Shown: piece by piece, positions 21,275 through 51,877 of the stretch
Layout of the letters: every line of letters starts with the position of its first letter
How positions within the stretch are numbered: the stretch's first letter is position 1
Assembly (NCBI GenBank): GCA_022563315.1
Contig: JADFNO010000001.1
Coordinates: 2,503 to 66,502 of the forward strand
Length of the DNA: 64,000 nt
Direction of reading: 5' to 3'
Source: Planctomycetota bacterium
Lineage (GTDB): Bacteria; Planctomycetota; Phycisphaerae; Phycisphaerales; SM1A02
Notes under the pieces: generated by a model
Told to the model about the DNA's origin: nothing
Database searches by the model: none
Seen by the model: only the letters and a program-made list of their open reading frames with translations
Position numbers and translations under genes: made by a program

Positions 21275-21540
21275 CCCACCAGCTTACCGATCGCGCCGCC
21301 GTTCCGCACACCCAAAACGGGAATATGGGAGCAGCAATGGCAAAAATGTGTCTCCTCGGGCGGCCGCAAAGCCGTGTGGTGACGGGGTTTTGAGCCATTC
21401 GGTCGGTTGGCCCGCTGCGAAACGCAGCCCCGCGATGGCGAGCAGAATCCTCGGATCTCACCACGGGCGCAGCGTTACTCGCCTGTCGAGGCCTCGATGC
21501 CTTCTTCTAAAACCCACCCTGTCGCATTCGGTGCAACAGC

Positions 21541-21564
21541 CCGCGGATATGCATCCGCGGCTAG
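21541..21564. repeat. REP-like hairpin element, copy 1 (ccgcggat-atgc-atccgcgg + ctag)
   Basis: A perfect 8-bp stem with a 4-nt loop. It is nearly identical to the element at 25787-25810 ('gcggatatNcatccgcNgctag') and lies downstream of the tmRNA. Confidence 0.7.
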
Positions 21565-21592
21565 CACGTTTTGATGCCGTCTTGTTCTCCCT

Positions 21593-21648
21593 CAATGCCT
21601 TGATGCCTCGATGCCTCGATGCCTCGATGCCTTGATGCCTTGATGCCT
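21593..21648. repeat. 8-bp tandem array (YRATGCCT x7)
   Basis: The units read caatgcct, tgatgcct, cgatgcct x3, tgatgcct x2. The array starts 15 nt past the tmRNA 3' end. Confidence 0.9.
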
Positions 21649-21662
21649 TCTTCAAGAAGAAG

Positions 21663-22011
21663 TGGAGCCGGGGGGAATCGAACCCCCGTGCCGGAACAGT
21701 CAGCAAGCCGCGTCTACACGTGTAGTCGTTATTTGATCTTGGTGAATTAGGCGACTAACGACCGCCTCCTAAAACACCATGGCATACAAGTTTCTCGCTC
21801 CGCCGAAGTATGCCAGCCCATTGGAGCCAGCCCGATGATCGTCGATCGCCAGCCGTATCGGGCGTCAAGCTGACGATCGTCACCGCAATTACGCGGCGAG
21901 TGCTAACTGAGTGTCAGCAATTATTAGTTTGCATCCTTTTTACGTGGCAAGGATGCTCCACGACGCGCAGCAACAAGCCTTCCCTGTCCGGTCGAATCCA
22001 ATTTCGGCCCC
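21663..22011 (-). ncRNA. ssrA: tmRNA (SsrA)
   Basis: On the minus strand the 5' end 'GGGGCCGAAATTGGATTCGACCGGACAGGG' and the 3' end 'CGGGGGTTCGATTCCCCCCGGCTCCA' form the tRNA-Ala-like acceptor and T-arm. An internal tag reading frame 'GCT GAC ACT CAG TTA GCA CTC GCC GCG TAA' (21889-21918) encodes ADTQLALAA-stop. CCA is not fully encoded. Confidence 0.9.
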
Positions 22012-22133
22012 AGTTGTCAAAGAAGAGGAAGAAAGGCACGAAGGCATTAGGCATTAGTGAAGAAGGCATCATATGCATGCCAGTTACATCGGTCGAGATC
22101 GAAGACCACACCAGCGAACGGCAGTGATTATCC

Positions 22134-22526
22134 ATGGTGGGGTATGATCCTGAGCTTATGAACAGGCTCGCGCAGACACCGAAGCCCCCCTACTACGCGG
22201 TCGTGTTCTCGTCACAGCGAACCGAGAACGATGCCGATGGTTATGCTGAAATGTCAGACCGTATGTTCGCGCTCGCCGCCCAGCAACCGGGCTATCTGGG
22301 TGTGGAGGCCGTGTCAGGCGAGGACAGCTTTGGGATGACGGTTTCGTATTGGGAAAGCCTTGACGCGATCCGGAACTGGCGAGCGCAAGCGGAACACAAG
22401 ATCGCACAGGCGCAAGGCCGAGCGAAGTGGTACGAGAATTACAAACGTCGGATTTGTCTGGTGGAGACGGAGTACAGTTTTGAGCGCACCGCAGGACGCA
22501 GTAGTGATAGCGGAGTTGGATCGTGA
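22134..22526 (+). CDS. Antibiotic-biosynthesis-monooxygenase (ABM)-like small protein
   Basis: 130 aa. 'YYAVVFSSQRTEN...GYLGVEAV...MTVSYWESLDAIRNWRAQAEH' fits the ABM ferredoxin-like fold family. Confidence 0.7.
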   Translation: MVGYDPELMNRLAQTPKPPYYAVVFSSQRTENDADGYAEMSDRMFALAAQQPGYLGVEAVSGEDSFGMTVSYWESLDAIRNWRAQAEHKIAQAQGRAKWYENYKRRICLVETEYSFERTAGRSSDSGVGS

Positions 22527-23200
22527 AACGGATATTGTTCTTCTATCTGATTCTGACGATCATCATCGGCACGCCGATTTCGTGGTACGCCTGGCCGAAG
22601 TCGCTTCCTCATCAGATGTCACCTTCCGACATGAGACTCTATTACCGAGGATTCGGGTTCAATGACGGGACCGGCATCTTCGGCAGACGCTGGTATGCGG
22701 TGACATTCGATCCCGAGCATGACGGCAGTCATTGGCAATTCGAGTTCATCGATTCAGGATATAACCCATACAAGGCGTTCTACTCAGACGGCTCGCTCCA
22801 GCAAGAAGGTAAATGCAGAATCGAGATCATGGGACTTGAGTATGCGCCGTACCCCAACTGGAGTGATTTGGAATGGGCAAAGTGCTATCGGCCGGATGGT
22901 TCACTTGGATCGAAAATTGTCGACGGCACCGGAACCCAAACGCAATGGATGCAGGATGGAACTAAGGTATGGGAATTGGAGTTAGTGGACTACGAGCGCG
23001 TAGCTCACACAAGGTGGTATCCCAACGGACAGTTGCGCACCCACCAAGCCTACGTGAACGGCGAAGTGCACGGACCCTTTATCAGCTACTATCCGTCCGG
23101 AGCCAAGCAGACCGAGGGCGCGTACGACGCAGGACGGCGCGTCGGCACATGGATCCGGTACAACGAGGACGGTTCCGTTGAATCAACCGAGTCAAATTGA
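22523..23200 (+). CDS. MORN-variant repeat protein (YwqK-like)
   Basis: An N-terminal TM plus repeats such as 'WYPNGQLRTHQAYVNGEVHGPFISYYPSGAKQTEGAYDAGRRVGTWIRYNEDGS'. It overlaps the ABM gene by 4 nt. Confidence 0.65.
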   Translation: MKRILFFYLILTIIIGTPISWYAWPKSLPHQMSPSDMRLYYRGFGFNDGTGIFGRRWYAVTFDPEHDGSHWQFEFIDSGYNPYKAFYSDGSLQQEGKCRIEIMGLEYAPYPNWSDLEWAKCYRPDGSLGSKIVDGTGTQTQWMQDGTKVWELELVDYERVAHTRWYPNGQLRTHQAYVNGEVHGPFISYYPSGAKQTEGAYDAGRRVGTWIRYNEDGSVESTESN

Positions 23201-23228
23201 ATGATCGAGAATCGGGACGGCGAAAGCT

Positions 23229-23260
23229 CGATGCCTCGATGCCATGACGCCGCTATGCCT
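23229..23260. repeat. Degenerate 8-bp tandem array (cgatgcct-like x4)
   Basis: The units read cgatgcct, cgatgcca, tgacgccg, ctatgcct. The array abuts the adk stop codon. Confidence 0.6.
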
Positions 23261-23877
23261 CACCCGAGCGGGTTGCCGAAGTGGTCGCGATAGACGGGTA
23301 CGATCGCTTGGAGCACTTGCATCAGCACCTCGGCCGGCGTACCGACGGCGATCACGTCGCTGATCAGATGCGCATCGTAATAACTCAGCACCGGCGCGGT
23401 TTCTTCATCGTACACCTCGAAGCGCCGGCGAATGACCGATTCGTCGGCATCATCAATTCGCCCTTCGGTCTCGGCCCGCTTCTTCATGCGTTGCACCATC
23501 TCGTCGATGTTGGGGGCCTTGAGATGGATGATTCGCAGCACCTCGATGTGCGCATCGACGATCTTCGCCTGGTTGACGTTGCGCGGAATTCCATCTAACA
23601 CGAGCAGGTCCGTACCGGGTCGAAAATCCTCGGCCTCGATCTTCTGTTGCATGTAACCCTGCCAGGCCCGGATCGTGAACTCGTCCGGGACGAGCAACCC
23701 CTGCGAGGAATACTCCAAAAACTTCTTGCCCAGCTCGGATTCTTTGTCGAGTGAGCGGAAAACATCGCCGGTGGCGAGATGGAAGAAGCCGGGGATATGG
23801 CCGAGGAGTTTGCCCTGGGTTCCCTTGCCTACGCCCGGGGCGCCAAAGAGGAGCACACTTTGGTAACGGCCTGCCAT
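23260..23877 (-). CDS. adk: Adenylate kinase
   Basis: P-loop 'LLFGAPGVGKGTQGKLL', plus 'ATGDVFR' and 'VLDGIPRNVNQA'. I chose the ATG at 23877 (205 aa). The longer ORF to 24363 overlaps recJ and has no Adk homology. Confidence 0.9.
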   Translation of the reverse strand: MAGRYQSVLLFGAPGVGKGTQGKLLGHIPGFFHLATGDVFRSLDKESELGKKFLEYSSQGLLVPDEFTIRAWQGYMQQKIEAEDFRPGTDLLVLDGIPRNVNQAKIVDAHIEVLRIIHLKAPNIDEMVQRMKKRAETEGRIDDADESVIRRRFEVYDEETAPVLSYYDAHLISDVIAVGTPAEVLMQVLQAIVPVYRDHFGNPLG

Positions 23878-41383: not shown

Positions 41384-42034
41384 TCACTCCTGCTCCCCGT
41401 CGTAATACATCGCCGCGTCGACAAGCACCGACGCCTCATCCGGACCATCGGACGATTCGGACGACCAGGTGAGGGTGATCCGCAGCCGCTGGGTGGCCTC
41501 GTAGGGGCGCCCAGTCTGCTCAAGCCGCATGTCCGCTACCCCCGTTGCCAGAACAGTAGGTGCAACGAGCGAGTCGGCCCGCCAACGATCGCAAAACCCC
41601 GCGCTCTGCGCCGCGGCCCGGTCCAGAACATGCGACGCCTCGGCCTCGCCCTCGAACAGTTGATACAGCACGATCGTCTGTAACACCTCGCTGTGACTCA
41701 ACACCGCTAACTCAGCTGGCTCCAAACGACCGGGATGCTCGCCGTCCTCCAGCCAGAGCACGAGTTCAGCGTAGGGCGTTGCCCCGCGCGGTCGCACGGC
41801 CAGAACCTCCACGCTGCGCCCGATCAATGCCCCAAGCCCGTTGATGAACTGCTGATTCACGGGGTACCGGGCGGCAATAACGTCACCGCCAATGCTCTGT
41901 GCCGTGAGGAAGCGCGGGGTAACGACGACCGCGGTGACTGACAGCGCTGTCGCCAACGAGAGCGCAATGAGCACGCCGCTCAGGGTGCTGCCCCGATCGT
42001 GAGCTGCTTCAGCCTTGTATCGACGAATGGACAT
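41384..42034 (-). CDS. Membrane-anchored hypothetical protein (GspK-like N-terminus?)
   Basis: 'RGSTLSGVLIALSLATALSVTAVVV' resembles the pseudopilin-K type anchor, but I recognise no other motif. I chose the ATG at 42034; the ORF extends to 42166. Confidence 0.45.
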   Translation of the reverse strand: MSIRRYKAEAAHDRGSTLSGVLIALSLATALSVTAVVVTPRFLTAQSIGGDVIAARYPVNQQFINGLGALIGRSVEVLAVRPRGATPYAELVLWLEDGEHPGRLEPAELAVLSHSEVLQTIVLYQLFEGEAEASHVLDRAAAQSAGFCDRWRADSLVAPTVLATGVADMRLEQTGRPYEATQRLRITLTWSSESSDGPDEASVLVDAAMYYDGEQE

Positions 42035-42192
42035 CAAGGACCCAACCAGTGAGAAACAAGAGCGTTCAGGGACCGTCCCCGGGATACCGGTCTGTGGCGG
42101 CGGTTCATTCAAACCGGACGAAGAGAACGCCGGCGTGTTTCCACGGCCGGCGTCTCGAAAGATCAACTGATTGCTGAAGCGTATCTCCAGTC

Positions 42193-42627
42193 TCAGTCAG
42201 CGTTGCCGTCGCCGTCCAGATCCAGGAAGCCGGTGTCGTCCTGGTTGGGCGCGTAGACATTAATCCCCCAACCGTTGGGATCAGCCCAGATCCAGCCGTT
42301 GCCGGTGCCCCACAGGAGGGCAATGGTGGCGCTGCCGTTCATCATCGGGTTCTTCGGCTCGGACTGCAGGTAGTCGCCGGTGGTCAACTGGTCCCAGCCT
42401 TGGACCAGTGGCTCGAACGGCGTCAGCGGGAACTGGATGTCGTGCAGTTCGATCTGACTGCGGAGCGTTTGCAACTGGGTCACGACGCTGGATTCCATCG
42501 CCTGCTGCGAAGCGTCGGTGAACTGCGGGATGACGATTGCGGCCAGGATGCCGAGGATCACCACCACGATCAAGATTTCGATCAATGTGAATGCCCGGTT
42601 GACCCGGGTCTTGATCTTCGTACGCAT
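42193..42627 (-). CDS. Major pilin / GspG-like pseudopilin (cluster 2)
   Basis: 'NRAFTLIEILIVVVILGILAAIVIPQFTDASQQA' is a canonical prepilin N-terminus. 144 aa; first gene of cluster 2. Confidence 0.85.
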   Translation of the reverse strand: MRTKIKTRVNRAFTLIEILIVVVILGILAAIVIPQFTDASQQAMESSVVTQLQTLRSQIELHDIQFPLTPFEPLVQGWDQLTTGDYLQSEPKNPMMNGSATIALLWGTGNGWIWADPNGWGINVYAPNQDDTGFLDLDGDGNAD

Positions 42628-43089
42628 GAGAATGAACTCCTTGTTGACAAGCTAAGAGAAAATCGCCTCCAAGCGAAGTCGTCAGGGTTCCGGCAGGCAT
42701 CGGGCCGCCGTCCCCTCCGTGTCAATTCCGAGGTCATGCCCACCATGACCCGGCCCTGTGAAGCGCCGCCCCAACCTTCCGGCCAAGCCGACTGTGATCT
42801 ACTCGTCGCACCCGTCGTTGCGTCGTGCCTCCTCCTCCAGAAGCTCGCCGCTGTTCAGGCCGCGAACGAGAACCCGCACTCCTAGTACAAAATGCATATC
42901 GACGCGCGGCAAGTCGCGGTCGAGAACAGCGGGCAAGATCACCCAGCCCCGAGCCGCGCAAGCGAGACAGCTTGAATATTGCATCACCCCGGGTACGCCA
43001 GCTTGCCAGGCCCCCCGTTTGGCCTGACACTTCCAGAGGCAGTATCGGACTCCCCCGGATTGACTTCCCGCTTGAAACGGACGAGTTGA

Positions 43090-43488
43090 CTACGCTGCCA
43101 GGAGCGATTCGAACTGGATCGCGACCCGATAGCCGTCGCCACAGGGGAGACAGCGAACGACCACCCCGCGCTTGGCGACGTAGCCCGGAGCTTTGAACCC
43201 CAGTGAGAGGATCGTTCCCGGCTCAAGCGGCGCGGAGCATTGCGCTCCCAGCCCTTCCCACGAGTAGTCGATCATCTTCAGCGCCTGCATCTGGCCGAAC
43301 CGCTCGCCCGCCACTCGAAACGCCGTGGCCACCCCCTGCACCGGCCAACGGTCATGCGCTCGGCGCTCGAACCGCAGCGGCGCCGGGGCGTCGGCGTCGT
43401 ATTCGGAATCCGATATCGTGTGGGGGGTATGCACCGTACTTCTCCGGGCAAGGCGTGAAGCCGCTTGGCTCCTGTGGTTTTCGGACAT
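43090..43488 (-). CDS. PilZ-domain protein (putative c-di-GMP receptor)
   Basis: 'ERRAHDRWPV' matches the RxxxR motif and 'IDYSWEGLG' matches the D/NxSxxG motif. 132 aa. Confidence 0.65.
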   Translation of the reverse strand: MSENHRSQAASRLARRSTVHTPHTISDSEYDADAPAPLRFERRAHDRWPVQGVATAFRVAGERFGQMQALKMIDYSWEGLGAQCSAPLEPGTILSLGFKAPGYVAKRGVVVRCLPCGDGYRVAIQFESLLAA

Positions 43489-43630
43489 ATCGCAAGCGAC
43501 CTTCAGTCCAGCGCCGGTGATTCCCCGGCTGGAGTCGACCCGGCTCCTCGATCAACGGTTCAGGGTCGTCGGATCAGGCGTACACTTCCCGACGCAGGAT
43601 CGATCAGCCCAACACCGCCAAGGACGCTCC

Positions 43631-44860
43631 ATGCTTCGCATCAAGCCGTTTGCGGCTCTTCGGCCGCTCCCGAACATCGCCGCCCAGGTCTCGTCCGTCC
43701 CCTACGACATCGTGACGACGGCGGAGGCCCGGCAGCTCGCCGCCGACAACCCGCGCAGCTTCCTGCGCGTCCTTCGCCCGGAGATCGACCTGCCCGGCGA
43801 AATGGATCCGCACGACCCGGCCGTGTACGCCGCTGCCAAGCAGAACTTCCAGCGACTGCTGTCGAACGGCGATCTCGTGCGGGAGGATGAACCCAAGCTG
43901 TATCTCTACCGCCAGGTGATCAACGACCACTATCAGATCGGGTTGGTCTGCTGCTGCCACCTGGATGACTACAACAACGACATCATCAAGAAGCACGAGA
44001 AGACGCGACCCGACAAGGAGGACGATCGCACCCGCCACATGCTTGCGATCAACGCCCAGCCCGGCCCGGTTCTGATGACCTACCGCGACCAGCCGAAGAT
44101 CGACAAACTCGTCGCGCAGGACGTGAACAACCGTCCCCTGTTCCACTTTGTCGCGCCGGACGGCGTAACGCATACGGTCTGGACGGTGGACGATGCGCAA
44201 CCCTATTGCGATGTTTTCGCCGAGGTCGAGGCCGCGTACATCGCCGACGGCCATCATCGCTCGGCCAGCGCCGCCCGGGCCGCCGCCCAGCGCCGAGCCG
44301 CGAACCCCAATCACACCGGCCACGAGGAATACAACTGGTTTCTCACCGTGCTCTTCCCCGCAAGTCAGCTCACCATCTTGCCCTACAACCGCGTCGTGAC
44401 TGATCTAGCCGGGCAAAGCGTGCAGCAGGTGCTGAAACGCCTGGCCGAAGTCGGAAACCTCAGCGATACCCAAGAGTCACAGCCGGACCGATCGGGCGTC
44501 TTTGGTATCTACCTTGATGGATCGTGGAGGCAACTGACATTGGACGAGGCAACCATTGACCGCTCCGACCCCATCCAATCCCTTGATGTCGCCCTGCTCC
44601 AGGACCGCGTGCTGGAGCCGATCTTCTCCATCGGCGACCCGCGCAGCGATCAGCGCCTCGATTTCATCGGCGGACTGAACAGCTCGCAGAAGCTTGTCAG
44701 CCGCGTTCACAGCGGTGACGCGGCCGCAGCCTTCTCCCTTTTCCCAACCACAATTCAGCAACTTCTGTCCGTAGCCGACGCCGGACTCGTCATGCCGCCC
44801 AAATCCACCTGGTTCGAACCCAAACTGCGCAGCGGACTCTTCATTCACATGCTCGACTAG
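43631..44860 (+). CDS. DUF1015-family protein
   Basis: 'MLRIKPFAALRPLPNIAAQVSSVPYDIV...HEKTRPDKEDDR...YIADGHHRSASA' matches what I recall of DUF1015. I chose the ATG at 43631; the ORF opens at 43325. Confidence 0.75.
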   Translation: MLRIKPFAALRPLPNIAAQVSSVPYDIVTTAEARQLAADNPRSFLRVLRPEIDLPGEMDPHDPAVYAAAKQNFQRLLSNGDLVREDEPKLYLYRQVINDHYQIGLVCCCHLDDYNNDIIKKHEKTRPDKEDDRTRHMLAINAQPGPVLMTYRDQPKIDKLVAQDVNNRPLFHFVAPDGVTHTVWTVDDAQPYCDVFAEVEAAYIADGHHRSASAARAAAQRRAANPNHTGHEEYNWFLTVLFPASQLTILPYNRVVTDLAGQSVQQVLKRLAEVGNLSDTQESQPDRSGVFGIYLDGSWRQLTLDEATIDRSDPIQSLDVALLQDRVLEPIFSIGDPRSDQRLDFIGGLNSSQKLVSRVHSGDAAAAFSLFPTTIQQLLSVADAGLVMPPKSTWFEPKLRSGLFIHMLD

Positions 44861-44895
44861 GGCACTTGCCGCCGAGAACGCAGCGGGGAAGAAAC

Positions 44896-45027
44896 CACAG
44901 ATGAACACAGATAGACACAGATAGAACTGGGAAGCCGGACCTGACGAGCGAGTCTTCGAGCGAGGAAGGTCCGGGTGGAAGGGGAAAGAAACGTCGAAGC
45001 GCAGCGGAGATCCCGATTCCATCGGGG
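44896..45027. repeat. Mosaic repeat unit, copy 1 (cacagat words + ccggacc/ggtccgg hairpin + 'gtcgaagcgcagcggagatCCCGATtccATCGGG' hairpin)
   Basis: It aligns by eye with 45557-45803. The conserved blocks are 'gggaagccggacctgacgagcg', 'gaggaaggtccgggtgg' and 'gtcgaagcgYagcggagatcccgattccatcgggg'. Confidence 0.8.
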
Positions 45028-45078
45028 TCGAAACGCCAAAATGCTGATCGCTGACCGCTGAAAGCTGATCGCTCCCCC

Positions 45079-45306
45079 CTACCCCTTCTTGCTTCGGCGG
45101 GGCAGTCGGGGCGCACCACCACCGCCGCCGGCGGCGCTTCGGCCGACACTGTCCACGCCGAAGGGATTGTCCGCAAAGGCCGTTCCCGGGTCCGGGTTCG
45201 GTGCGGTGGAATCGCCGGCCTCCTTCGCCTTGGCACGAGCAGCCTTGGCCTTCTTTTCTTTCCGGGCCTTGGCCTTCCTCAGTTTCTCGCGGTCGCGCTT
45301 ACTCAT
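45079..45306 (-). CDS. Small lysine/arginine-rich hypothetical protein
   Basis: 75 aa beginning 'MSKRDREKLRKAKARKEKKAKAARAKAKE'. An AAGGA lies ~5 nt upstream of the ATG. It lies between the two mosaic repeat units. Confidence 0.4.
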   Translation of the reverse strand: MSKRDREKLRKAKARKEKKAKAARAKAKEAGDSTAPNPDPGTAFADNPFGVDSVGRSAAGGGGGAPRLPRRSKKG

Positions 45307-45403
45307 GACGTCCTTCTAGGGGTCCGGGGGTCCGGGGGTCCGTGCCTGTGTTGTGCCGTCATTATGGCTGCCCCAACGGCCCAAGGCGAGCGGATTCGGC
45401 GAA

Positions 45404-45498
45404 GAAGTGTAAAGCCGCGACCAGTGGTCGCGCTTGGTCGAAGCAGAGAACGCCGGAACGCGAAGGCACGAAGTGTAAAGCCGCGACCAGTGGTCGCG
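45404..45498. repeat. Two identical 29-bp hairpin-containing direct repeats separated by 37 bp
   Basis: 'gaagtgtaaagccgcgaccagtggtcgcg' occurs at 45404-45432 and 45470-45498, with an internal palindrome cgcgacc-agt-ggtcgcg. Confidence 0.85.
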
Positions 45499-45556
45499 AG
45501 GGGGGGAAGGAAGGAGTCAGGAGTCGGGAGACCTCAAGCCGCAAGCCTTCTTTCGC

Positions 45557-45803
45557 CACAGATGAACATGGATGGGCACGGATAGAACCGGGAAGCCGGA
45601 CCTGACGAGCGTCCCGATTCGATCGGGAGAGGAAGGTCCGGGTGGCACGGCAAGGAACCGTCGAAACATCGAAACATCGAAACGTCTCAAACCTCAAGCC
45701 TCAAACCTCCCCCATGCAACCATGGCGGACTGATGGCTAATGGTTTATGCCAACGCCTAATGCCCAATGTCGAAGCGTAGCGGAGATCCCGATTCCATCG
45801 GGG
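45557..45803. repeat. Mosaic repeat unit, copy 2 (expanded by tandem 8-mers 'cgaaacat' x3 and 'ctcaaacc'-like)
   Basis: It has the same conserved blocks as copy 1, an inner hairpin tcccgat-tcg-atcggga (45612-45628), and a terminal hairpin cccgat-tcc-atcggg (45788-45802). Confidence 0.8.
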
Positions 45804-45938
45804 CCTAATGCCTTCTTCTCCAGGTGTCATTCTGAGCCGCGCAAGGACGCAAACAAATCATCGTGGGACCTTTTCCTTCCCTGAGCATTTCTATGCCTCA
45901 ATGGCCTTCGCCACGTCGCCGTGTACGCCTTCGAGTCG

Positions 45939-47744
45939 CTACTCGGGCACACTCACGAAATCGTCGTGCTTGAGGTGATGGCGATACGAAATCGGAAGTG
46001 CCTGCGCATATTGAGTCGCTGGTCGCGTGTTCGTTTCTTGGGTTGATACGTTCTCAATCATGATGCCGATCACAAGTCCGCGTCGATCAACCACTGGGCC
46101 ACCGCTAATACCTACACTCGAAACCACGCTCAGTTGTATAAATCGCTCGTTCGTCACCGGGGATGTCGAGAGTGCCGTAACCGTCCCGATTATTGCGACA
46201 AGTGCCTCTTTACGATTGAGTAAGGTCGGAAATCCAAGCGCCATGACCTCCTCTCCGATCTTCGGAAGGCGGTACTGAGTCGGAAGTCGACTAAGTCTCT
46301 CCATTCGCCTGTCGTTGACCCGAATCAGGCCGAAATCTACGCCGTGCTGTACGTGCTTCCACGCAACGGCCGTTGGCCTGATGGCGGGGTCGAAGGGATC
46401 CTCCAGGGTCAATGGGTATGGCTTGACCTTTGTATCCTCCTCCTCTCGCCCCGCGATGCAGTGGCCGGCAGTAGCGAATAAGTGATTGCCAAAATAGAAG
46501 GCGGTGCCGCCGGTCAAGTCTTCGCCAACCTGAACCTCGAGTAGACATATGCTCCCGCGATAGCGTTCGACTATCCTCGTCCACGGCTCAGGTTGAACTG
46601 ATATCCCCCGGAGAGGGGTTGATGCCAGCTCGCGCACATGCATTGGCTTCCGCGGGACCGTGACAGCGTCAATGAAGTGCGCTCGTGCCTGAAGTCGCCG
46701 GTAGACGGGGTCATCAGCGCCGCGGACCATTCGCATGAACTCAAGATTTCCCCTCACCACTCGCTTGAATGTGTCTTCGGATGTGTTCGAGCGTCCAGAG
46801 TACCGTGAATATTCCTCGGCCGCAGCGGCCGGTCCTTTTCGATCCCAATTGTGAATCATTGCTCGCAGTGTCCTAATGAACCTCCTGGAGACGTTCGGGA
46901 ACTCATTCACGGTGAGACCTGTCACTTCCTGGCGTTGCCATCGATTCGACAGTCGAACTTTGCTTCGATTGATTTCGAAGTTGTGCTTCTCTATGACCTT
47001 TTTTAGCAGCTCACCAGCACTTACGGTTCCGTCACTTGCGACCACAGCGAGTTTTTTACTGATCACCGGCGCGGTGGTGGAGAACGTTATGTCATCCGCG
47101 TATCGCGTGTAGACGCACCGAGTTTGCGACGCCAGACGTTGCAACGATGTGTCTAGAGATCGGCAGACAATGTTCGAGATCATGGGCGATGTCGGCCCGC
47201 CCTGCGGAAGCCTCCCGCAATCCATACAGCATATCTGTGCAAGAATCTCCGCAGCACTTTTACCGATGCTGTACGGCTCTGCTTGCAGCGTCGCCGCGAT
47301 CCGGCCAACGTGAATTGTCGGGAAGAAGTCTGCCAAGTCGATGTTCAGCACTATTCGCTGCCCAACGTGAGGGATCGCGTTGGTGAGGATGCTCTGACCA
47401 CGAATGAACCCGTGCGCGGAGGGTTTCCGATCGAACACAATCTGCAGGACGCGCGCGAGTTTGATCTGTAGAATCGATAGATTCTTTGGGGGTGCCGAAA
47501 TATGTCTGACTCCACCCCTAGACTTTGGGATAGAGAACGATCGGTAGTTCTTTCGTTCGCGCCGAACGTACAGAACCCAGGCGAGGAACCGTAGCTTCAC
47601 TTCCAGCAACCGCGCAACATCGCGCCGAGTTTCTAGCAGCGCGAAGCGATTGCGGATCGTGTCATCGTTAGCCCGTAGTACGGCTGGAGAAACAGAAAAT
47701 GCTGGGCCCTCAGCTGGCATTCCATCTCCGCGGAGTAGATACAT
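45939..47744 (-). CDS. Retron-type reverse transcriptase fused to C-terminal trypsin-like (S1) serine protease
   Basis: RT motifs 'SIPKSRGGVRHISAP', 'LTNAIPH', 'NIDLADFFPTI', 'LPQGGPTSPMISN', 'YTRYADDITFS' (YADD at 47091-47102) and 'QEVTGLTVN'. Protease triad motifs 'FATAGHC', 'DFGLIRV' and 'GISGGPVV'. An alternative ATG at 47720 has a better GGAG Shine-Dalgarno. Confidence 0.9.
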   Translation of the reverse strand: MYLLRGDGMPAEGPAFSVSPAVLRANDDTIRNRFALLETRRDVARLLEVKLRFLAWVLYVRRERKNYRSFSIPKSRGGVRHISAPPKNLSILQIKLARVLQIVFDRKPSAHGFIRGQSILTNAIPHVGQRIVLNIDLADFFPTIHVGRIAATLQAEPYSIGKSAAEILAQICCMDCGRLPQGGPTSPMISNIVCRSLDTSLQRLASQTRCVYTRYADDITFSTTAPVISKKLAVVASDGTVSAGELLKKVIEKHNFEINRSKVRLSNRWQRQEVTGLTVNEFPNVSRRFIRTLRAMIHNWDRKGPAAAAEEYSRYSGRSNTSEDTFKRVVRGNLEFMRMVRGADDPVYRRLQARAHFIDAVTVPRKPMHVRELASTPLRGISVQPEPWTRIVERYRGSICLLEVQVGEDLTGGTAFYFGNHLFATAGHCIAGREEEDTKVKPYPLTLEDPFDPAIRPTAVAWKHVQHGVDFGLIRVNDRRMERLSRLPTQYRLPKIGEEVMALGFPTLLNRKEALVAIIGTVTALSTSPVTNERFIQLSVVSSVGISGGPVVDRRGLVIGIMIENVSTQETNTRPATQYAQALPISYRHHLKHDDFVSVPE

Positions 47745-48184
47745 GACCCTTGGCTACATCGCTAACCATCGCACCAAGTGGCTGGTGAGTCGGCCTATTC
47801 ACGAACGTTGTCCAAGGCCGTCGCGTAACGCGACAGCAATCAATGCCGTCGAGGGCCCAGCATGGGCAAAGATATCAAGTAGGCGCGTTTCCCGAAAGTT
47901 TGGCAGAGTCACGCCACCGCCGTAACCGCCGACATGTCCCCCGTCAACGGTCCACTCCTCTTGGCATGCAATGTCTCCAGCTACCGACACAACGTCACCT
48001 GGAGCCGAGCGGCGGCCTGACCCCTGAGTAGTTGACGCCTGTGCAGGGGGCATTGGGGACGATGACGGACACCCAGGACTCGTAGGACTCGCTGTGCGTG
48101 GCGCTCGGAGTGATGGTGGGGTTGATTGTGTGCGGGCGCGAACCGGGTTGACACAACCCGGCTCGCTACGGTTGACATCCCGAT

Positions 48185-48199
48185 CCCGATGGAATCGGG
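48185..48199. repeat. cccgat-gga-atcggg hairpin (inverted-loop copy of the 45012/45788 hairpin)
   Basis: It has the same 6-bp stem as the copies on the other side of the RT gene, with the complementary loop. Confidence 0.6.
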
Positions 48200-48340
48200 A
48201 CAGGGGGAATCGGGAGCGCGCGGGGATCGGGATCGGCAGTTATGCCGTTGTTGGGCCCCCATACTCGGCCTAGACCCCCAAGTGGCTTGTTTGAGGGGCG
48301 TTGAGGGGCGGGGTCTCGGCCGGGGCGATACACTAGAAGG

Positions 48341-49624
48341 ATGATGGCCAGCAGCTCTGCTTCCACGGCGATCCGCGAGACGGGCGGGCCGACGGCGACC
48401 AGCCGAACGGCGGGGCTCGGCGTGTTGATTGCGGACAAGTTCGAGCAGGCGGGCATCGACGGGCTGGAGGCGCTGGGCTGCACGGTTCACTTTCAACCCA
48501 CACTTACCGCAGATGATCTCGCAGAAGCGGTCAGTGCGCACGACCCGGACGTGATCATCGTTCGCTCGACAAAGGTGCCCGCGTCGGCGTTCACGGCGGC
48601 GAAGAAGTTGAGTCTGGTTATTCGAGCTGGGGCGGGCTACGACACGATCGACGTGAGAGCTGCCTCGGCGCGGGGTGTGTTCGTCGCCAACTGCCCGGGG
48701 AAGAACGCGATCGCGGTAGCGGAACTCACCTGGGCGCTGATTCTTGCCTGCGACCGCCGTGTGCCCGACCAAACGCTTGAGCTTCGGCAAGGGAAGTGGA
48801 ACAAGAAGGAATACGCCAAGGCAGCAGGACTGTACGGGCGAACGCTCGGCATTGTGGGGTTTGGCCGCATCGGCCAGGCGGTGGCTACGCGTGGGCGGGC
48901 ATTCGGCATGAACGTCGTTGCCTGGTCGCGCAGCCTCACCCAGGAAAAGGCGGACGAGTTCGACGTGGCGTACTGCTCCAACCTCATCAACCTGGCGAAG
49001 ATGGCGGATGTGGTGTCGATCAACATCGCGGCGACGGCGGACACCAAGAACATCATCGACGAGCAATTCTGTGCCGCGCTCAAGGACGGTGCGTACGTCG
49101 TCAACACCAGCCGGGGCAGCGTGGTGGATCAGGCGGCGCTCACGACCGCCATTCGTGAGCGAGGCGTTCGCGCGGGTTTGGATGTCTACGCCACGGAGCC
49201 GGCCGCGGCGGATAAGACTTTCGCCGACCCGATCGTCAACGAGCCGAACGTCTACGGCACACACCACATCGGCGCTGCCACCGACCAGGCCCAGCAAGCG
49301 GTCGCCGACGAGGTTGTGCGCATCGTCCGCTCGTACATGAGCGCGGGGGTGGTGCCGAACTGTGTGAACCGCGCAGCCTCCACCACCGCCACGACGCTGC
49401 TCACGGTGCGACACCTCAACAAGCCGGGCGTTTTGGCGCACGTTTTTTACACGCTTGGCCAAGCGAACATCAACGTCGAGGAGATGGAGAACATCATTTA
49501 CGAAGGGGCGGAGGCCGCGTGCGCTCGCATTCAACTCGACGATCGCCCCAACGAGGGCGAGATCAACGCCATCCGCGCCAACGACAACGTGCTGAGTGTG
49601 AATATCACCAGCATCACCGATTGA
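48341..49624 (+). CDS. serA: D-3-phosphoglycerate dehydrogenase (with C-terminal ACT domain)
   Basis: An NAD-binding 'LGIVGFGRIGQAVA', the catalytic region 'NTSRGSVVD...HIGAAT', and an ACT-like C-terminus. It is followed by serC. Confidence 0.85.
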   Translation: MMASSSASTAIRETGGPTATSRTAGLGVLIADKFEQAGIDGLEALGCTVHFQPTLTADDLAEAVSAHDPDVIIVRSTKVPASAFTAAKKLSLVIRAGAGYDTIDVRAASARGVFVANCPGKNAIAVAELTWALILACDRRVPDQTLELRQGKWNKKEYAKAAGLYGRTLGIVGFGRIGQAVATRGRAFGMNVVAWSRSLTQEKADEFDVAYCSNLINLAKMADVVSINIAATADTKNIIDEQFCAALKDGAYVVNTSRGSVVDQAALTTAIRERGVRAGLDVYATEPAAADKTFADPIVNEPNVYGTHHIGAATDQAQQAVADEVVRIVRSYMSAGVVPNCVNRAASTTATTLLTVRHLNKPGVLAHVFYTLGQANINVEEMENIIYEGAEAACARIQLDDRPNEGEINAIRANDNVLSVNITSITD

Positions 49625-49653
49625 CCGTTGATCACGAACGGCGGCTACGAGAC

Positions 49654-50781
49654 ATGAGTACGACCACGACCCCCACTATTGCCGAGCCGAAGTCCGGCTC
49701 GAAGCGCATCTATAACTTCTCCGCCGGGCCGGCCATACTTCCCGAGGCGGTGCTGCGGCAGGCGCAGCACGATATTTGGAACGTGCAAGACAGCGGCATC
49801 GGCATCTGTGAGCACAGCCACCGCGGCCAGGTTTTCAACCGCGTCATCGCCGAGGCCGAGGCAGACTGCCGAGCGATCGCTGATATCAGCGACGACTACG
49901 CCGTGCTGTTCCTGCAAGGCGGGGCGTCACTCCAATTCGCGATGGCGCCGATGAACTTTCTCAAGAAGGATCGGACGGCTGACTATCTCCATACCGGCGA
50001 GTGGACGAAAAAGGCGATCGCCGACGCCAAACTGTTCGGCAACGTGAACGTCGCCTTCGACGGCGGGCAGTCGAATTTCGATCACGTTCCGGCGGCCCAG
50101 GAGATCAACGCCAGCGACGCCCCTGCGTATACGTTCTATTGCTCGAACAACACGATCTACGGCACGGAATACGCAAGTACGCCTTCCAGTGCGGCACCGC
50201 TGATCTGTGACGCCAGCTCGGATATTCTCAGTCGGCCTATCGAGGTGAGCAAGCACGGGTTGATCTTTGCCGGCGCGCAGAAGAACCTCGGCCCGGCTGG
50301 GTGTACGCTCGTGATTATCCGCAAGGACTTTCTTAACGGCGCGAACACCGGCCTGCCTCAAATGCTCGACTACCGCAAACACGTTGAGAAGGGCTCGCGC
50401 CTCAACACCCCGCCCGCGTTCGCCATCTACATGATGGGCTTGGTGTTCAAATGGATTCTGGATCAAGGCGGGCTGGCGACACTGGCCGATCGTAACCGGA
50501 AGAAGGCTGCGATCATGTACGACGCCATCGAATCCTCCGGCGGGTTTTACAAAGGCGTTGCGCGGGCGGATTCACGCTCGCTGATGAATGTCACCTTCCG
50601 CACGCCCAACGACGACCTGGATAAGAAGTTCATCGAGGAAGCGCTTGCCAGCGACATGTCCGGCCTGAAGGGGCATCGTTCAGCGGGTGGACTGCGAGCC
50701 TCGATCTACAACGCATTTCCCAAGGCAGGTTGCGAAGCGTTAGCCCAGTTCATGAAGGACTTCGCCCAGCGCAACGGGTGA
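49654..50781 (+). CDS. serC: Phosphoserine aminotransferase
   Basis: 'IYNFSAGPAILPEAVL', 'FAGAQKNLGPAG' (PLP-Lys region) and 'GHRSAGGLRASIYNA'. I chose the ATG at 49654; the ORF opens at 49519. Confidence 0.9.
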   Translation: MSTTTTPTIAEPKSGSKRIYNFSAGPAILPEAVLRQAQHDIWNVQDSGIGICEHSHRGQVFNRVIAEAEADCRAIADISDDYAVLFLQGGASLQFAMAPMNFLKKDRTADYLHTGEWTKKAIADAKLFGNVNVAFDGGQSNFDHVPAAQEINASDAPAYTFYCSNNTIYGTEYASTPSSAAPLICDASSDILSRPIEVSKHGLIFAGAQKNLGPAGCTLVIIRKDFLNGANTGLPQMLDYRKHVEKGSRLNTPPAFAIYMMGLVFKWILDQGGLATLADRNRKKAAIMYDAIESSGGFYKGVARADSRSLMNVTFRTPNDDLDKKFIEEALASDMSGLKGHRSAGGLRASIYNAFPKAGCEALAQFMKDFAQRNG

Positions 50782-50884
50782 GGCGATCGCACGTACCTCT
50801 GAGTTCCTCCAAGCGTTGCAGCCCTTCACTCGAAAGTGCCGAACCGGTTCGGCATTGACGTCGTAGCCAAGATGTTGGGATCCA

Positions 50885-51877
50885 ATGGATACACCACACC
50901 TGGATCAACCTGCCAGATTGAGTGAGGTAAGGCTACATTTTGCCGAAAACCGTTCGGCGATCATTACCTGCGCCATATTCGCCTGGGTTGTCTTCGGAGT
51001 ATTCTCCTTTGGCTTTGCGTTGGCTGATAGTGGGATCATCCCCACGGTAGGGCTGTACGTTCTGGCTTGGTTGATTCTGGGGGGATCAATCGCTTTGCAT
51101 GTACTGGCGATACGTCGGTTGCGCCGCACCTTGGCGGCCAATACGTTCCAACTTTGCACCCAATGCCGCCATTCACTGCGGGGACTTGCTGATGTCGGCA
51201 GCTGCCCGGAGTGCGGCGAGAACTTTGATATCCAAGTCGTGTGCACAACATGGCGACGGGTCGTTCATCTTCCGGAATCAGCTTCACCGAGTGATTATTG
51301 GGTGAGACAGTTTACCCCACCGGCGACGCGGCGACAGCGCGTTTTCGACGTGATCTTCGGTCTCGTGATGCCGGTCGTGTGCATGATCTTCGATCCGATC
51401 GTCTTCAAGGGTTCGGGCCTGTTCTCGGATGAGGGAATGTTCAGCGAGTTGCGATGGTTTGCGTATACCGGTCTCGCGGTCGAACTCATCGCCCTTGGAA
51501 TATGGCTTCAATATGGTGAACAATTGAGCCGGGGGCGCGACGTTGTCGGCGGCACCCTGCTCGGCGGAGCGATCGTTGCCGCACTGATCGGGATGACGAT
51601 CTTCCCGCTGAGCCTGATCGGTATCCTTTTTATCCTCGTCGGCACGCTCGGCTTTACCCCTTTCCTTACATCGCTGGTTCTTGCCCGCAACGCTGCCCGC
51701 GCCCTGGCGCGGGGTAACGATGATTCGCCTAGACCGGGACGTCGGCTCAGGATGGGGTTCGGTCTGTTGATCCTAGCAACCGTGGTTATTGCCGCTCACG
51801 CTATCCAGCACGAGGGCAATATCGAGACGATGATCACGATCGACCTCGATGACGACGATCCAGCGGATAACTGGTAA
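50885..51877 (+). CDS. Polytopic membrane protein with cytoplasmic zinc-ribbon-like CxxC...CxxC
   Basis: 'CTQCRHSLRGLADVGSCPECG' lies between TM segments. There are ~8 predicted TM helices and no family that I recognise. Confidence 0.55.
   Translation: MDTPHLDQPARLSEVRLHFAENRSAIITCAIFAWVVFGVFSFGFALADSGIIPTVGLYVLAWLILGGSIALHVLAIRRLRRTLAANTFQLCTQCRHSLRGLADVGSCPECGENFDIQVVCTTWRRVVHLPESASPSDYWVRQFTPPATRRQRVFDVIFGLVMPVVCMIFDPIVFKGSGLFSDEGMFSELRWFAYTGLAVELIALGIWLQYGEQLSRGRDVVGGTLLGGAIVAALIGMTIFPLSLIGILFILVGTLGFTPFLTSLVLARNAARALARGNDDSPRPGRRLRMGFGLLILATVVIAAHAIQHEGNIETMITIDLDDDDPADNW

Follow-up and report, generated by a model that had tools for sequence, protein, structure and literature searches.

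We analysed a 64,000-nt stretch of Planctomycetota DNA (GenBank assembly GCA_022563315.1, contig JADFNO010000001.1; hereafter the window), in which a minus-strand gene at 45939..47744 encodes a reverse transcriptase (RT) with a fused serine protease that is trypsin-like. This locus is almost certainly a type XI retron together with its non-coding RNA (ncRNA). The protein matches the two RT-Protease_XI models of PADLOC over nearly their full length (model positions 3–493 of 510; E = 1.2e-141 and 9e-140), and a 165-nt ncRNA bounded by an inverted repeat (a1/a2) overlaps the first codons of the RT. A first-pass annotation made from the sequence alone had read the gene as a self-contained candidate defence system in which a retron-type RT carries an S1 protease domain. 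The PADLOC assignment and the structural matches to the retron Eco2 and to HtrA proteases support that proposal. Its description as a single-gene system does not hold, since the ncRNA at 47699-47863, an obligatory second component that overlaps the start of the open reading frame (ORF), had been overlooked.

The system is already catalogued as type XI, a type for which earlier work has demonstrated reverse-transcribed DNA (RT-DNA). Mestre et al. (2020; PMC7736814) described type XI as a retron RT-protease fusion, grouped it with types XII and I-C as the fusion types of clade 8, and reported it without a recognisable ncRNA. A 2026 preprint survey lists canonical type XI among the types without a usable ncRNA model; the ncRNAs that it does describe in this group are confined to XI-like lineages lacking the protease. 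Type XI retrons were expressed in E. coli by Khan et al. (2024; PMC10849725), who used hand-predicted, a1/a2-bounded ncRNAs and showed RT-DNA by polyacrylamide gel electrophoresis and sequencing for Mestre-1122, 1143 and 1163, with yields of 0.02, 0.79 and 0.26 times that of Eco1, respectively; their Supplement 3 gives the ncRNA and RT-DNA sequences of these three retrons.

The RT-protease fusion protein

The gene and its domains are as follows.

45939..47744, minus strand: RT-protease fusion ORF, 601 amino acids (aa) from M1 (ATG); ORF list and PADLOC RT-Protease_XI match
46911..47531, minus strand: RT palm and fingers, residues 72-278; Pfam RVT_1 (3e-18), invariant motifs, Eco2 match
47091-47102, minus strand: YADD codons, within the RVT_1 region, as is the NAxxH motif (N122, H126)
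46671..46886, minus strand: helical thumb region, residues 287-358; AlphaFold2 helices, covered by the Eco2 structural alignment
45975..46550, minus strand: HtrA-like S1 protease domain without PDZ, residues ~399-590; Pfam Trypsin_2 at 413-561 (8.5e-14)
46461-46463, 46335-46337 and 46104-46106, minus strand: codons of the catalytic residues H428, D470 and S547, a triad invariant in 42 sequences

The 601-aa ORF exists exactly as first described, and every motif quoted for it (LTNAIPH, YADD, RQEVTGLTVN, TAGHC with H428, DFGLIRV with D470 and GISGGP with S547) is present in the translation. Searches of the kind that the first-pass annotation had proposed as checks, against Pfam and PADLOC, returned the two Pfam domains listed above and the RT-Protease_XI match. 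The true start is probably M9 (47720), giving 593 aa, rather than M1, because the gene call of a 96% identical relative begins at M9 and the AlphaFold2 model shows disorder over residues 1-9. In the homologue alignment both this relative (P0001, 593 aa) and P0002 begin at the M9 position. [quoted passage not shown] On a contig 99.5% identical to the window (L167:9309-10979; GCA_022567375.1, JADFHB010000001.1) the gene is annotated as a 556-aa protein that starts at residue 46 of the window ORF; this annotation drops residues 20-45, which are conserved in the family and confidently folded.

A scan of the genome collection with the single protein gave no relatives, so an alignment was used as the query instead. 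Across 42 aligned full-length homologues (35–96% identity), N122, H126, D217/D218, V274-T275-G276, H428, D470 and S547 are invariant. Two near-identical copies from other samples, one 96% and one 96.7% identical, keep the ORF open. The 96% relative (L161) differs from the window gene at 74 nt, nearly all of them in one patch of ~770 nt (window 46668-47440; coding nucleotides 281-1053 counted from M9), while identity is ~99.5% over the remainder of the gene and the 420 nt upstream of it; this clustering suggests that a patch inside the RT domain was exchanged by recombination.

The order of the PADLOC models is XI (1e-141), XII (RT-TIR, 1.8e-120) and I-C (RT-Toprim, 3e-98), the latter two matching the RT half only, and all of the top 25 matches are retron RT models. 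Placement in clade 8 rests on this ranking of profile models, in which XI, XII and I-C are the three clade-8 fusion types; read in this way, the sequence comparison shows that the RT belongs to the retron clade containing Eco2 (I-C), XI and XII. Solved structures give a consistent picture. The best sequence matches are retron Ec67/Eco2 (4e-56) and Ec86 (1e-32), with group II intron RTs at ~1e-6, and the N-terminal half of the model superposes on Eco2 cryo-electron microscopy structures over ~335 residues (E = 3e-28, root-mean-square deviation 2.3 Å) at 36% identity between the two RTs. The VTG motif lies at residues 274-276, at the downstream edge of the palm and fingers. What had been described as a ~100-aa linker between the two domains is mostly the helical RT thumb, with helices at 287-303, 305-316, 323-341 and 346-358 (pLDDT >90). 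The linker proper comprises only ~30 residues, a short segment of lower confidence at ~360-387 between thumb and protease.

The protease half was compared with known proteases by sequence profile and by structure. A profile of the domain matches Deg2, DegQ, HTRA1 and DegS at 1e-18 to 1e-14, and in the alignment to Deg2 the TAGH, D-G-I and G-SGGP motifs fall on TNAHC, DIALL and GNSGGP, which hold the catalytic His, Asp and Ser. The intact chymotrypsin-fold triad noted in the first-pass annotation is thus borne out, H428, D470 and S547 aligning to S1 catalytic residues. A Foldseek search with the C-terminal half retrieved DegQ, DegS and DegP (E = 1e-10, template-modelling score ~0.7). The domain shares with the HtrA family (DegS, DegP, DegQ, Deg2, HTRA1; MEROPS S1C) the chymotrypsin fold, the aligned His-Asp-Ser residues and a GxSGGP-type motif, but differs in being fused to a cytoplasmic RT and in lacking a PDZ domain, a signal peptide and a periplasmic context. 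Pfam detects no PDZ domain, and the protein stops ~10 residues past the protease fold in the model; we therefore refer to an HtrA-like protease domain and not to a canonical HtrA protein.

The ncRNA upstream of the RT

The upstream element comprises the following parts.

47699..47863, minus strand: retron ncRNA (msr-msd), 165 nt; a1/a2 inverted repeat, overlapping the first RT codons
47851..47863, minus strand: a1, 5′ arm of the closing helix, AUGCUGGGCCCUC; inverted-repeat search
47699..47711, minus strand: a2, 3′ arm of the closing helix, GAGGGCCCAGCAU; inside the RT ORF, codons 4-8 from M9
47803..47846, minus strand: msr module (linker, conserved hairpin, AA-N-GU motif); covariance model R2
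47817-47837, minus strand: msr hairpin, 9 bp, loop UUA; covariation support
47804-47811, minus strand: AA-N-GU motif, the stop of RT-DNA synthesis in validated relatives; transferred from relatives
47841, minus strand: predicted priming (branching) G; fold and RT-DNA start in Mestre-1122, 1143 and 1163
47723..47806, minus strand: predicted msd template, 84 nt; boundaries transferred from three sequenced type XI RT-DNAs

The arms a1 and a2 form a perfect 13-nt inverted repeat that encloses 139 nt, and the 186-nt stretch around it folds with an energy of −76.4 kcal/mol (z = −3.5). In this fold an inner helix pairs GGCAUU (47842-47847) with AAUGCC (47716-47721). Two G residues are candidates for priming, one at 47850 directly after a1 and one at 47841 adjoining the inner helix, the latter being the predicted site. 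In Mestre-1122, 1143 and 1163 the RT-DNA template ends directly 5′ of GA(A/G) and begins at AA-N-GU. By transfer of these boundaries, the multicopy single-stranded DNA (msDNA) of the window is predicted to be the reverse complement of 47723..47806, CATCTCCGCGG...TTCACGAAC. The 3′ part of the ncRNA fold also contains a GGAG ribosome-binding site (47726-47729) and the M9 ATG (47718-47720). Rfam returned nothing significant in 44500-48800, and terminator-like sites near the locus occur at chance level only.

Conservation of the ncRNA across the family

We screened 39 loci encoding full-length RT-protease relatives (29–49% protein identity) for the best long-range inverted repeat between −400 and +120 around the RT start. 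The position scored for was a 5′ arm 40–190 nt upstream of the estimated RT start; in the repeats of a1/a2 geometry the 3′ arm ends at about −25 to +70 and the interior measures 85–140 nt. The top-scoring repeat has this geometry in 32 of the 39 loci, compared with 17% of dinucleotide shuffles and 6/39 in-gene regions, and its score exceeds the 95th percentile of the shuffles in 29 loci. The arm sequences themselves are unrelated between loci. At positions flanking the helix, G.U outnumbers A.C by 31 to 9 (p = 7e-4, with strand-symmetric selection of seeds), from which it follows that the element is read as RNA, in the sense of the RT. In locus L132 the repeat screen recovered blind the same element as the ncRNA of Mestre-1122. 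Also common to the loci are a hairpin whose loop is of the ..UA(A/C)CUGCG.. type, followed a few nucleotides on by AA-N-GU, and a GA(A/G) that shortly precedes the 3′ strand of the closing helix.

Because MAFFT, run on the whole ncRNA, brought the msr into register and left the covarying arms ragged, only the msr was modelled and the arms were screened by position. The msr covariance model was built from the other loci and the published type XI ncRNAs and contained no sequence from the window or from L161, whose flanks are ~99.5% identical to those of the window and hence useless for covariation. A first model (R1) found the correct match in the window at E = 0.5, and one round of re-alignment gave R2, for which the window msr (47846-47803, minus strand) is the sole match on both strands of the 64 kb (19.0 bits, E = 0.013). 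All nine pairs of the hairpin show compensatory changes in the model-fitted alignment. Paired cells amount to 84% compared with 67% in shuffles, and the covariation score is 0.55 compared with 0.26 in shuffles and at most 0.22 with slid partners, counts that lean towards the structure because the alignment was fitted to it.

The window locus thus has the features common to type XI: a clade-8 RT and a C-terminal trypsin-like protease in one ORF, no separate effector, and an upstream a1/a2-bounded ncRNA with msr hairpin, AA-N-GU stop and GA(A/G) start motifs. The ncRNA resembles theirs in size, its msd being predicted at 84 nt compared with measured templates of 55–82 nt. The locus differs from other members in its host phylum, Planctomycetota, and in protein sequence (29–49% identity, save two near-identical metagenomic copies). 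In most relatives the RT start codon follows the 3′ arm by 8–17 nt, whereas in the window it lies inside the closing helix.

Related RTs fused to other C-terminal domains

Among known retrons, Eco2 (Ec67; type I-C, RT-Toprim) provides the closest solved RT structure; there too a single protein combines RT and effector, and the ncRNA lies upstream. Its effector is a Toprim RNase that cuts tRNA, whereas that of the window is a protease; trimerisation through msDNA has been demonstrated for Eco2, and its trigger DenB is specific to T-even-type coliphages. Type XII (RT-TIR) shares the RT half (1.8e-120 on the RT-TIR_XII models) and an ncRNA module of the same type, but it and the other clade-8 fusions differ from the window protein in the C-terminal effector. 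The NCBIfam model Retron_TIR_antiphage matches residues 41-360 at 4e-104; with 349 bits the match misses the 600-bit cutoff because the protein has no TIR domain.

The closest relatives of the RT domain itself (51–53% identity) carry a C-terminal class III nucleotide cyclase or GGDEF domain in place of a protease.

L173:2387-4288, L176:202-2051 and L177:117-1966: RT-cyclase fusions (PF00211, ~1e-24)
L174:744-2479 and L175:183-1918: RT-GGDEF fusions (PF00990, 5e-40)

The msr model matches at these loci with 22.8–34.7 bits, and a1/a2 arms of 15–17 bp enclose interiors of 124–142 nt. From their sequences, the RT-cyclase and RT-GGDEF fusions look like retrons with second-messenger-synthesising effectors. 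Neither domain appears in the type table of Mestre et al. (PMC7736814) or in the 2026 survey of type XI. These fusions with the same ncRNA lie outside the window and are the most novel observation of this analysis; no account of them turned up in the papers searched.

An upstream msr match was also seen for relatives that align in the RT only, namely L010, L014, L089 and L002 (with an EGKTD motif), L017 and L018, L011 and L015, and L005. Their C-terminal regions differ and, judged by eye from motifs only, are Toprim-like, TIR-like, PD-(D/E)xK-nuclease-like and AlbA_2-like.

Genomic context of the retron

Comparison with related contigs delimits the retron to a variable cassette.

45499..48295, unstranded: variable cassette with the retron, ~2.8 kb; blastn of the window against L172 and L171
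45404..45509, unstranded: left junction, where a 40-nt repeat with the palindrome GCCGCGACCAGTGGTCGCG occurs twice
48291..48310, unstranded: right junction, tandem TTGAGGGGCG x2, ~45 bp before the serA start

By blastn, homology to L172 ends at 45498 (L171: 45404), directly after the second GCCGCGACCAGTGGTCGCG palindrome, and resumes at 48296. The DUF1015 protein of the window is 100% identical to one from a Planctomycetes metagenome-assembled genome, and contig JADFHB010000001.1 (GCA_022567375.1) is 99.5% identical to window 42000-51860; its annotation calls no other gene in the cassette, in line with the earlier statement that no separate effector gene is present. Relatives whose DUF1015 proteins are 92–96% identical keep the neighbourhood, in which DUF1015 is accompanied by PilZ, by genes for a pilus or type II secretion, and by a lysine-rich ORF of 75 aa. 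The slot that follows the small ORF is filled differently. It holds the type XI retron in the window, L167 and L168. In L172 (8993-11333) it holds DarT (2e-59) and DarG (3e-129), followed by serA-serC as in the window. In L178 (8827-12400) and L179 it holds a type II methyltransferase (MTase_II, 3e-102), a ParB_N protein and a 275-aa unclassified protein, with no serA within the stretch covered, and in L171 (8835-9310) an HTH_23 protein at the contig end. The slot after the 75-aa ORF is a variable defence hotspot with sharp breakpoints. That the slot holds the retron here and DarTG or a restriction-modification (RM)-like module in relatives supports an immune role independently of homology.

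The RT-protease gene is compositionally foreign to its host. The G+C content of its coding sequence is 55.3%, compared with 60.6% for the whole window, which puts it in the 1st percentile among stretches of the same size, and at third codon positions it is 61%, compared with 80–81% in the genes for DUF1015 and serA. Recounting confirmed as exact the four spot values for G+C in the first-pass annotation (50%, 48.3%, 56.7% and 76.7%), and the hairpins and tandem repeats that it placed around the gene are real. Its claim that this is the only obviously accessory gene in the window needs revision: a 225-aa ORF at 22523-23200 (plus strand), whose product has a hydrophobic segment at its N terminus and MORN_2 repeats (3.5e-10), sits in an equally low-G+C stretch, the lowest of the window (~55% near 21500-23300), and is a second candidate accessory gene.

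The 75-aa lysine/arginine-rich ORF (45079-45306, minus strand) matches nothing in Pfam or PADLOC; its conservation (74–75 aa) beside DUF1015 in all related contigs examined makes it a probable core gene. A 17-nt palindrome, TCCCGATTC-N-ATCGGGA, occurs four times in the 64 kb, compared with 0.12 expected by chance.

45011-45027, 45612-45628, 45787-45803 and 48184-48200: copies of TCCCGATTC-N-ATCGGGA, in both intergenic regions flanking the retron

This palindrome could be a repetitive extragenic palindromic (REP)-like repeat, a terminator or a recombination site. We considered the flanking palindromes as element ends or att sites; the copy at 45011 lies to the left of the cassette in the conserved part, and no recombinase is found near the cassette. 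A non-coding unit of ~140 nt is, in addition, duplicated at 84–91% identity (44895-45032 compared with 45556-45665 plus 45766-45808) and is found nowhere else in the window. The first copy separates DUF1015 from the small ORF, and the second sits inside the cassette, where it is split by ~100 nt; L172 holds the first copy only.

Discussion

For the function of the locus we favour, with some reserve, a protease switch against phage that would be gated by msDNA. The RT would copy ~84 nt of the ncRNA into msDNA, primed by the 2′-OH of the predicted G at 47841 at the inner end of the closing helix, and the msDNA-RT complex would hold the fused protease inactive. Phage infection would perturb the msDNA by degradation, modification or binding, and the freed protease would cleave host and/or phage proteins and halt phage production, probably by abortive infection. 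Folding or processing of the RNA may also tune synthesis of the RT-protease, because the ribosome-binding site (GGAG) and the RT start codon lie within the 3′ part of the ncRNA fold.

HtrA proteases are activated allosterically and in an oligomer-dependent manner, and on this general ground gating of the protease by msDNA is plausible. A more specific version, which we offer tentatively and with less confidence, is that the msDNA acts as an allosteric cage of the HtrA-type protease and that processing of the transcript by RT and RNase H feeds back on RT-protease synthesis, with ribosome-binding site and start codon hidden in the helix that closes the ncRNA.

The precedent is Eco2, the only fused-effector retron with a known mechanism (PMC12916289). 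Its msDNA links three RT-Toprim subunits and cages the nuclease; once DenB, a nuclease of the phage, has degraded the msDNA, Toprim is set free and cleaves tRNAs (PMC12916289; structure and mechanism also in PMC12405507). The authors of PMC12916289 propose the same logic for type XI. The earlier statement that no mechanism has been demonstrated for RT-protease fusions agrees with this source (PMC12916289), and the accompanying hypothesis, gating of proteolysis by the RT product, is the default expectation of the field.

Several observations weigh against this account. The literature search yielded no report of phage defence, trigger or substrate for any type XI retron, and an HtrA-like domain without PDZ could be regulated independently of msDNA. 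At the level of the RNA, the window msr scores only 19 bits with R2, and the msDNA of the window element is predicted by transfer from relatives. The inner helix shows no excess in the family-wide test (5.77 bp compared with 5.76 bp in shuffles). A G lies at or beside the arm end in 23 of the 39 loci, but the helix that decides between the two G residues of the window is not above shuffles, and for this reason G47841 is retained as a predicted priming site. A scan for sigma-70 promoters recognised none at the locus.

Among the alternatives, the one that survives best, though unlikely, accepts the retron and questions the role of its protease, which would not be a toxic effector of abortive infection but would act in cis in self-processing or RT maturation, or would cut a phage protein and leave the host alive. 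Proteases of the HtrA family often serve in quality control or processing, the window domain lacks a PDZ, a short linker of lower confidence separates it from the thumb, and no substrate is known for type XI in the literature searched. All characterised retrons, Eco2 included, nevertheless use a partner or fused domain as a growth-arresting effector (PMC12916289). The same RT and ncRNA cassette is, moreover, fused elsewhere to TIR-like, Toprim-like and cyclase modules, a pattern that speaks for exchangeable effectors and against an enzyme of maturation.

Less probable again is that the locus is selfish or addiction cargo without net anti-phage function, in which loss of msDNA would be toxic, or an inactive remnant. 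The foreign composition, the toxin-antitoxin system DarTG in the same hotspot and the lack of a defence report for type XI are compatible with cargo of this kind, but DarTG is itself anti-phage, both domains retain their catalytic residues, the ncRNA is intact, and the 96% and 96.7% identical copies elsewhere keep the ORF open.

We regard it as very improbable that the upstream element is only a 5′ untranslated region acting as a translational regulator, or a chance palindrome, and not a template for reverse transcription. The ribosome-binding site and start codon inside the structure, the modest score of 19 bits and the absence of an Rfam match would fit such a reading. Against it, arm geometry is kept over the 39 loci while arm sequences are unrelated, the msr hairpin covaries, and sequencing shows that the homologous elements of three type XI retrons template RT-DNA (PMC10849725).

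That the RT belongs to a different class (group II intron, diversity-generating retroelement (DGR), or abortive-infection/unknown-group (Abi/UG)), with a protease fusion unrelated to retrons, has next to no probability, since the generic similarities from which it draws (TIGR04416, 54 bits against a cutoff of 300; Drt2 and Drt3a, 26–36 bits) are all far under their cutoffs and the PADLOC ranking holds retron RT models throughout its top 25, with no Rfam intron RNA in 44500-48800, no template/variable repeat pair in 44700-48450 and no DGR RT model among the matches, so that the clustering with group II intron or DGR RTs against which the first-pass annotation had guarded is not seen.

The locus provides a clean and fully delimited example of a type XI retron, with ncRNA, predicted msDNA, catalytic residues and cassette borders. 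It comes from an under-studied phylum, and its place in a hotspot that in relatives holds DarTG or an RM-like module supports the immune role. The ncRNA evidence at the level of the family reconciles the validated ncRNAs of Khan et al. (PMC10849725) with the 2026 survey, in which no usable model is available. Should the proposed mechanism prove true, bacterial immunity would have in the msDNA-caged protease its first example of a protease effector gated by a nucleic acid.

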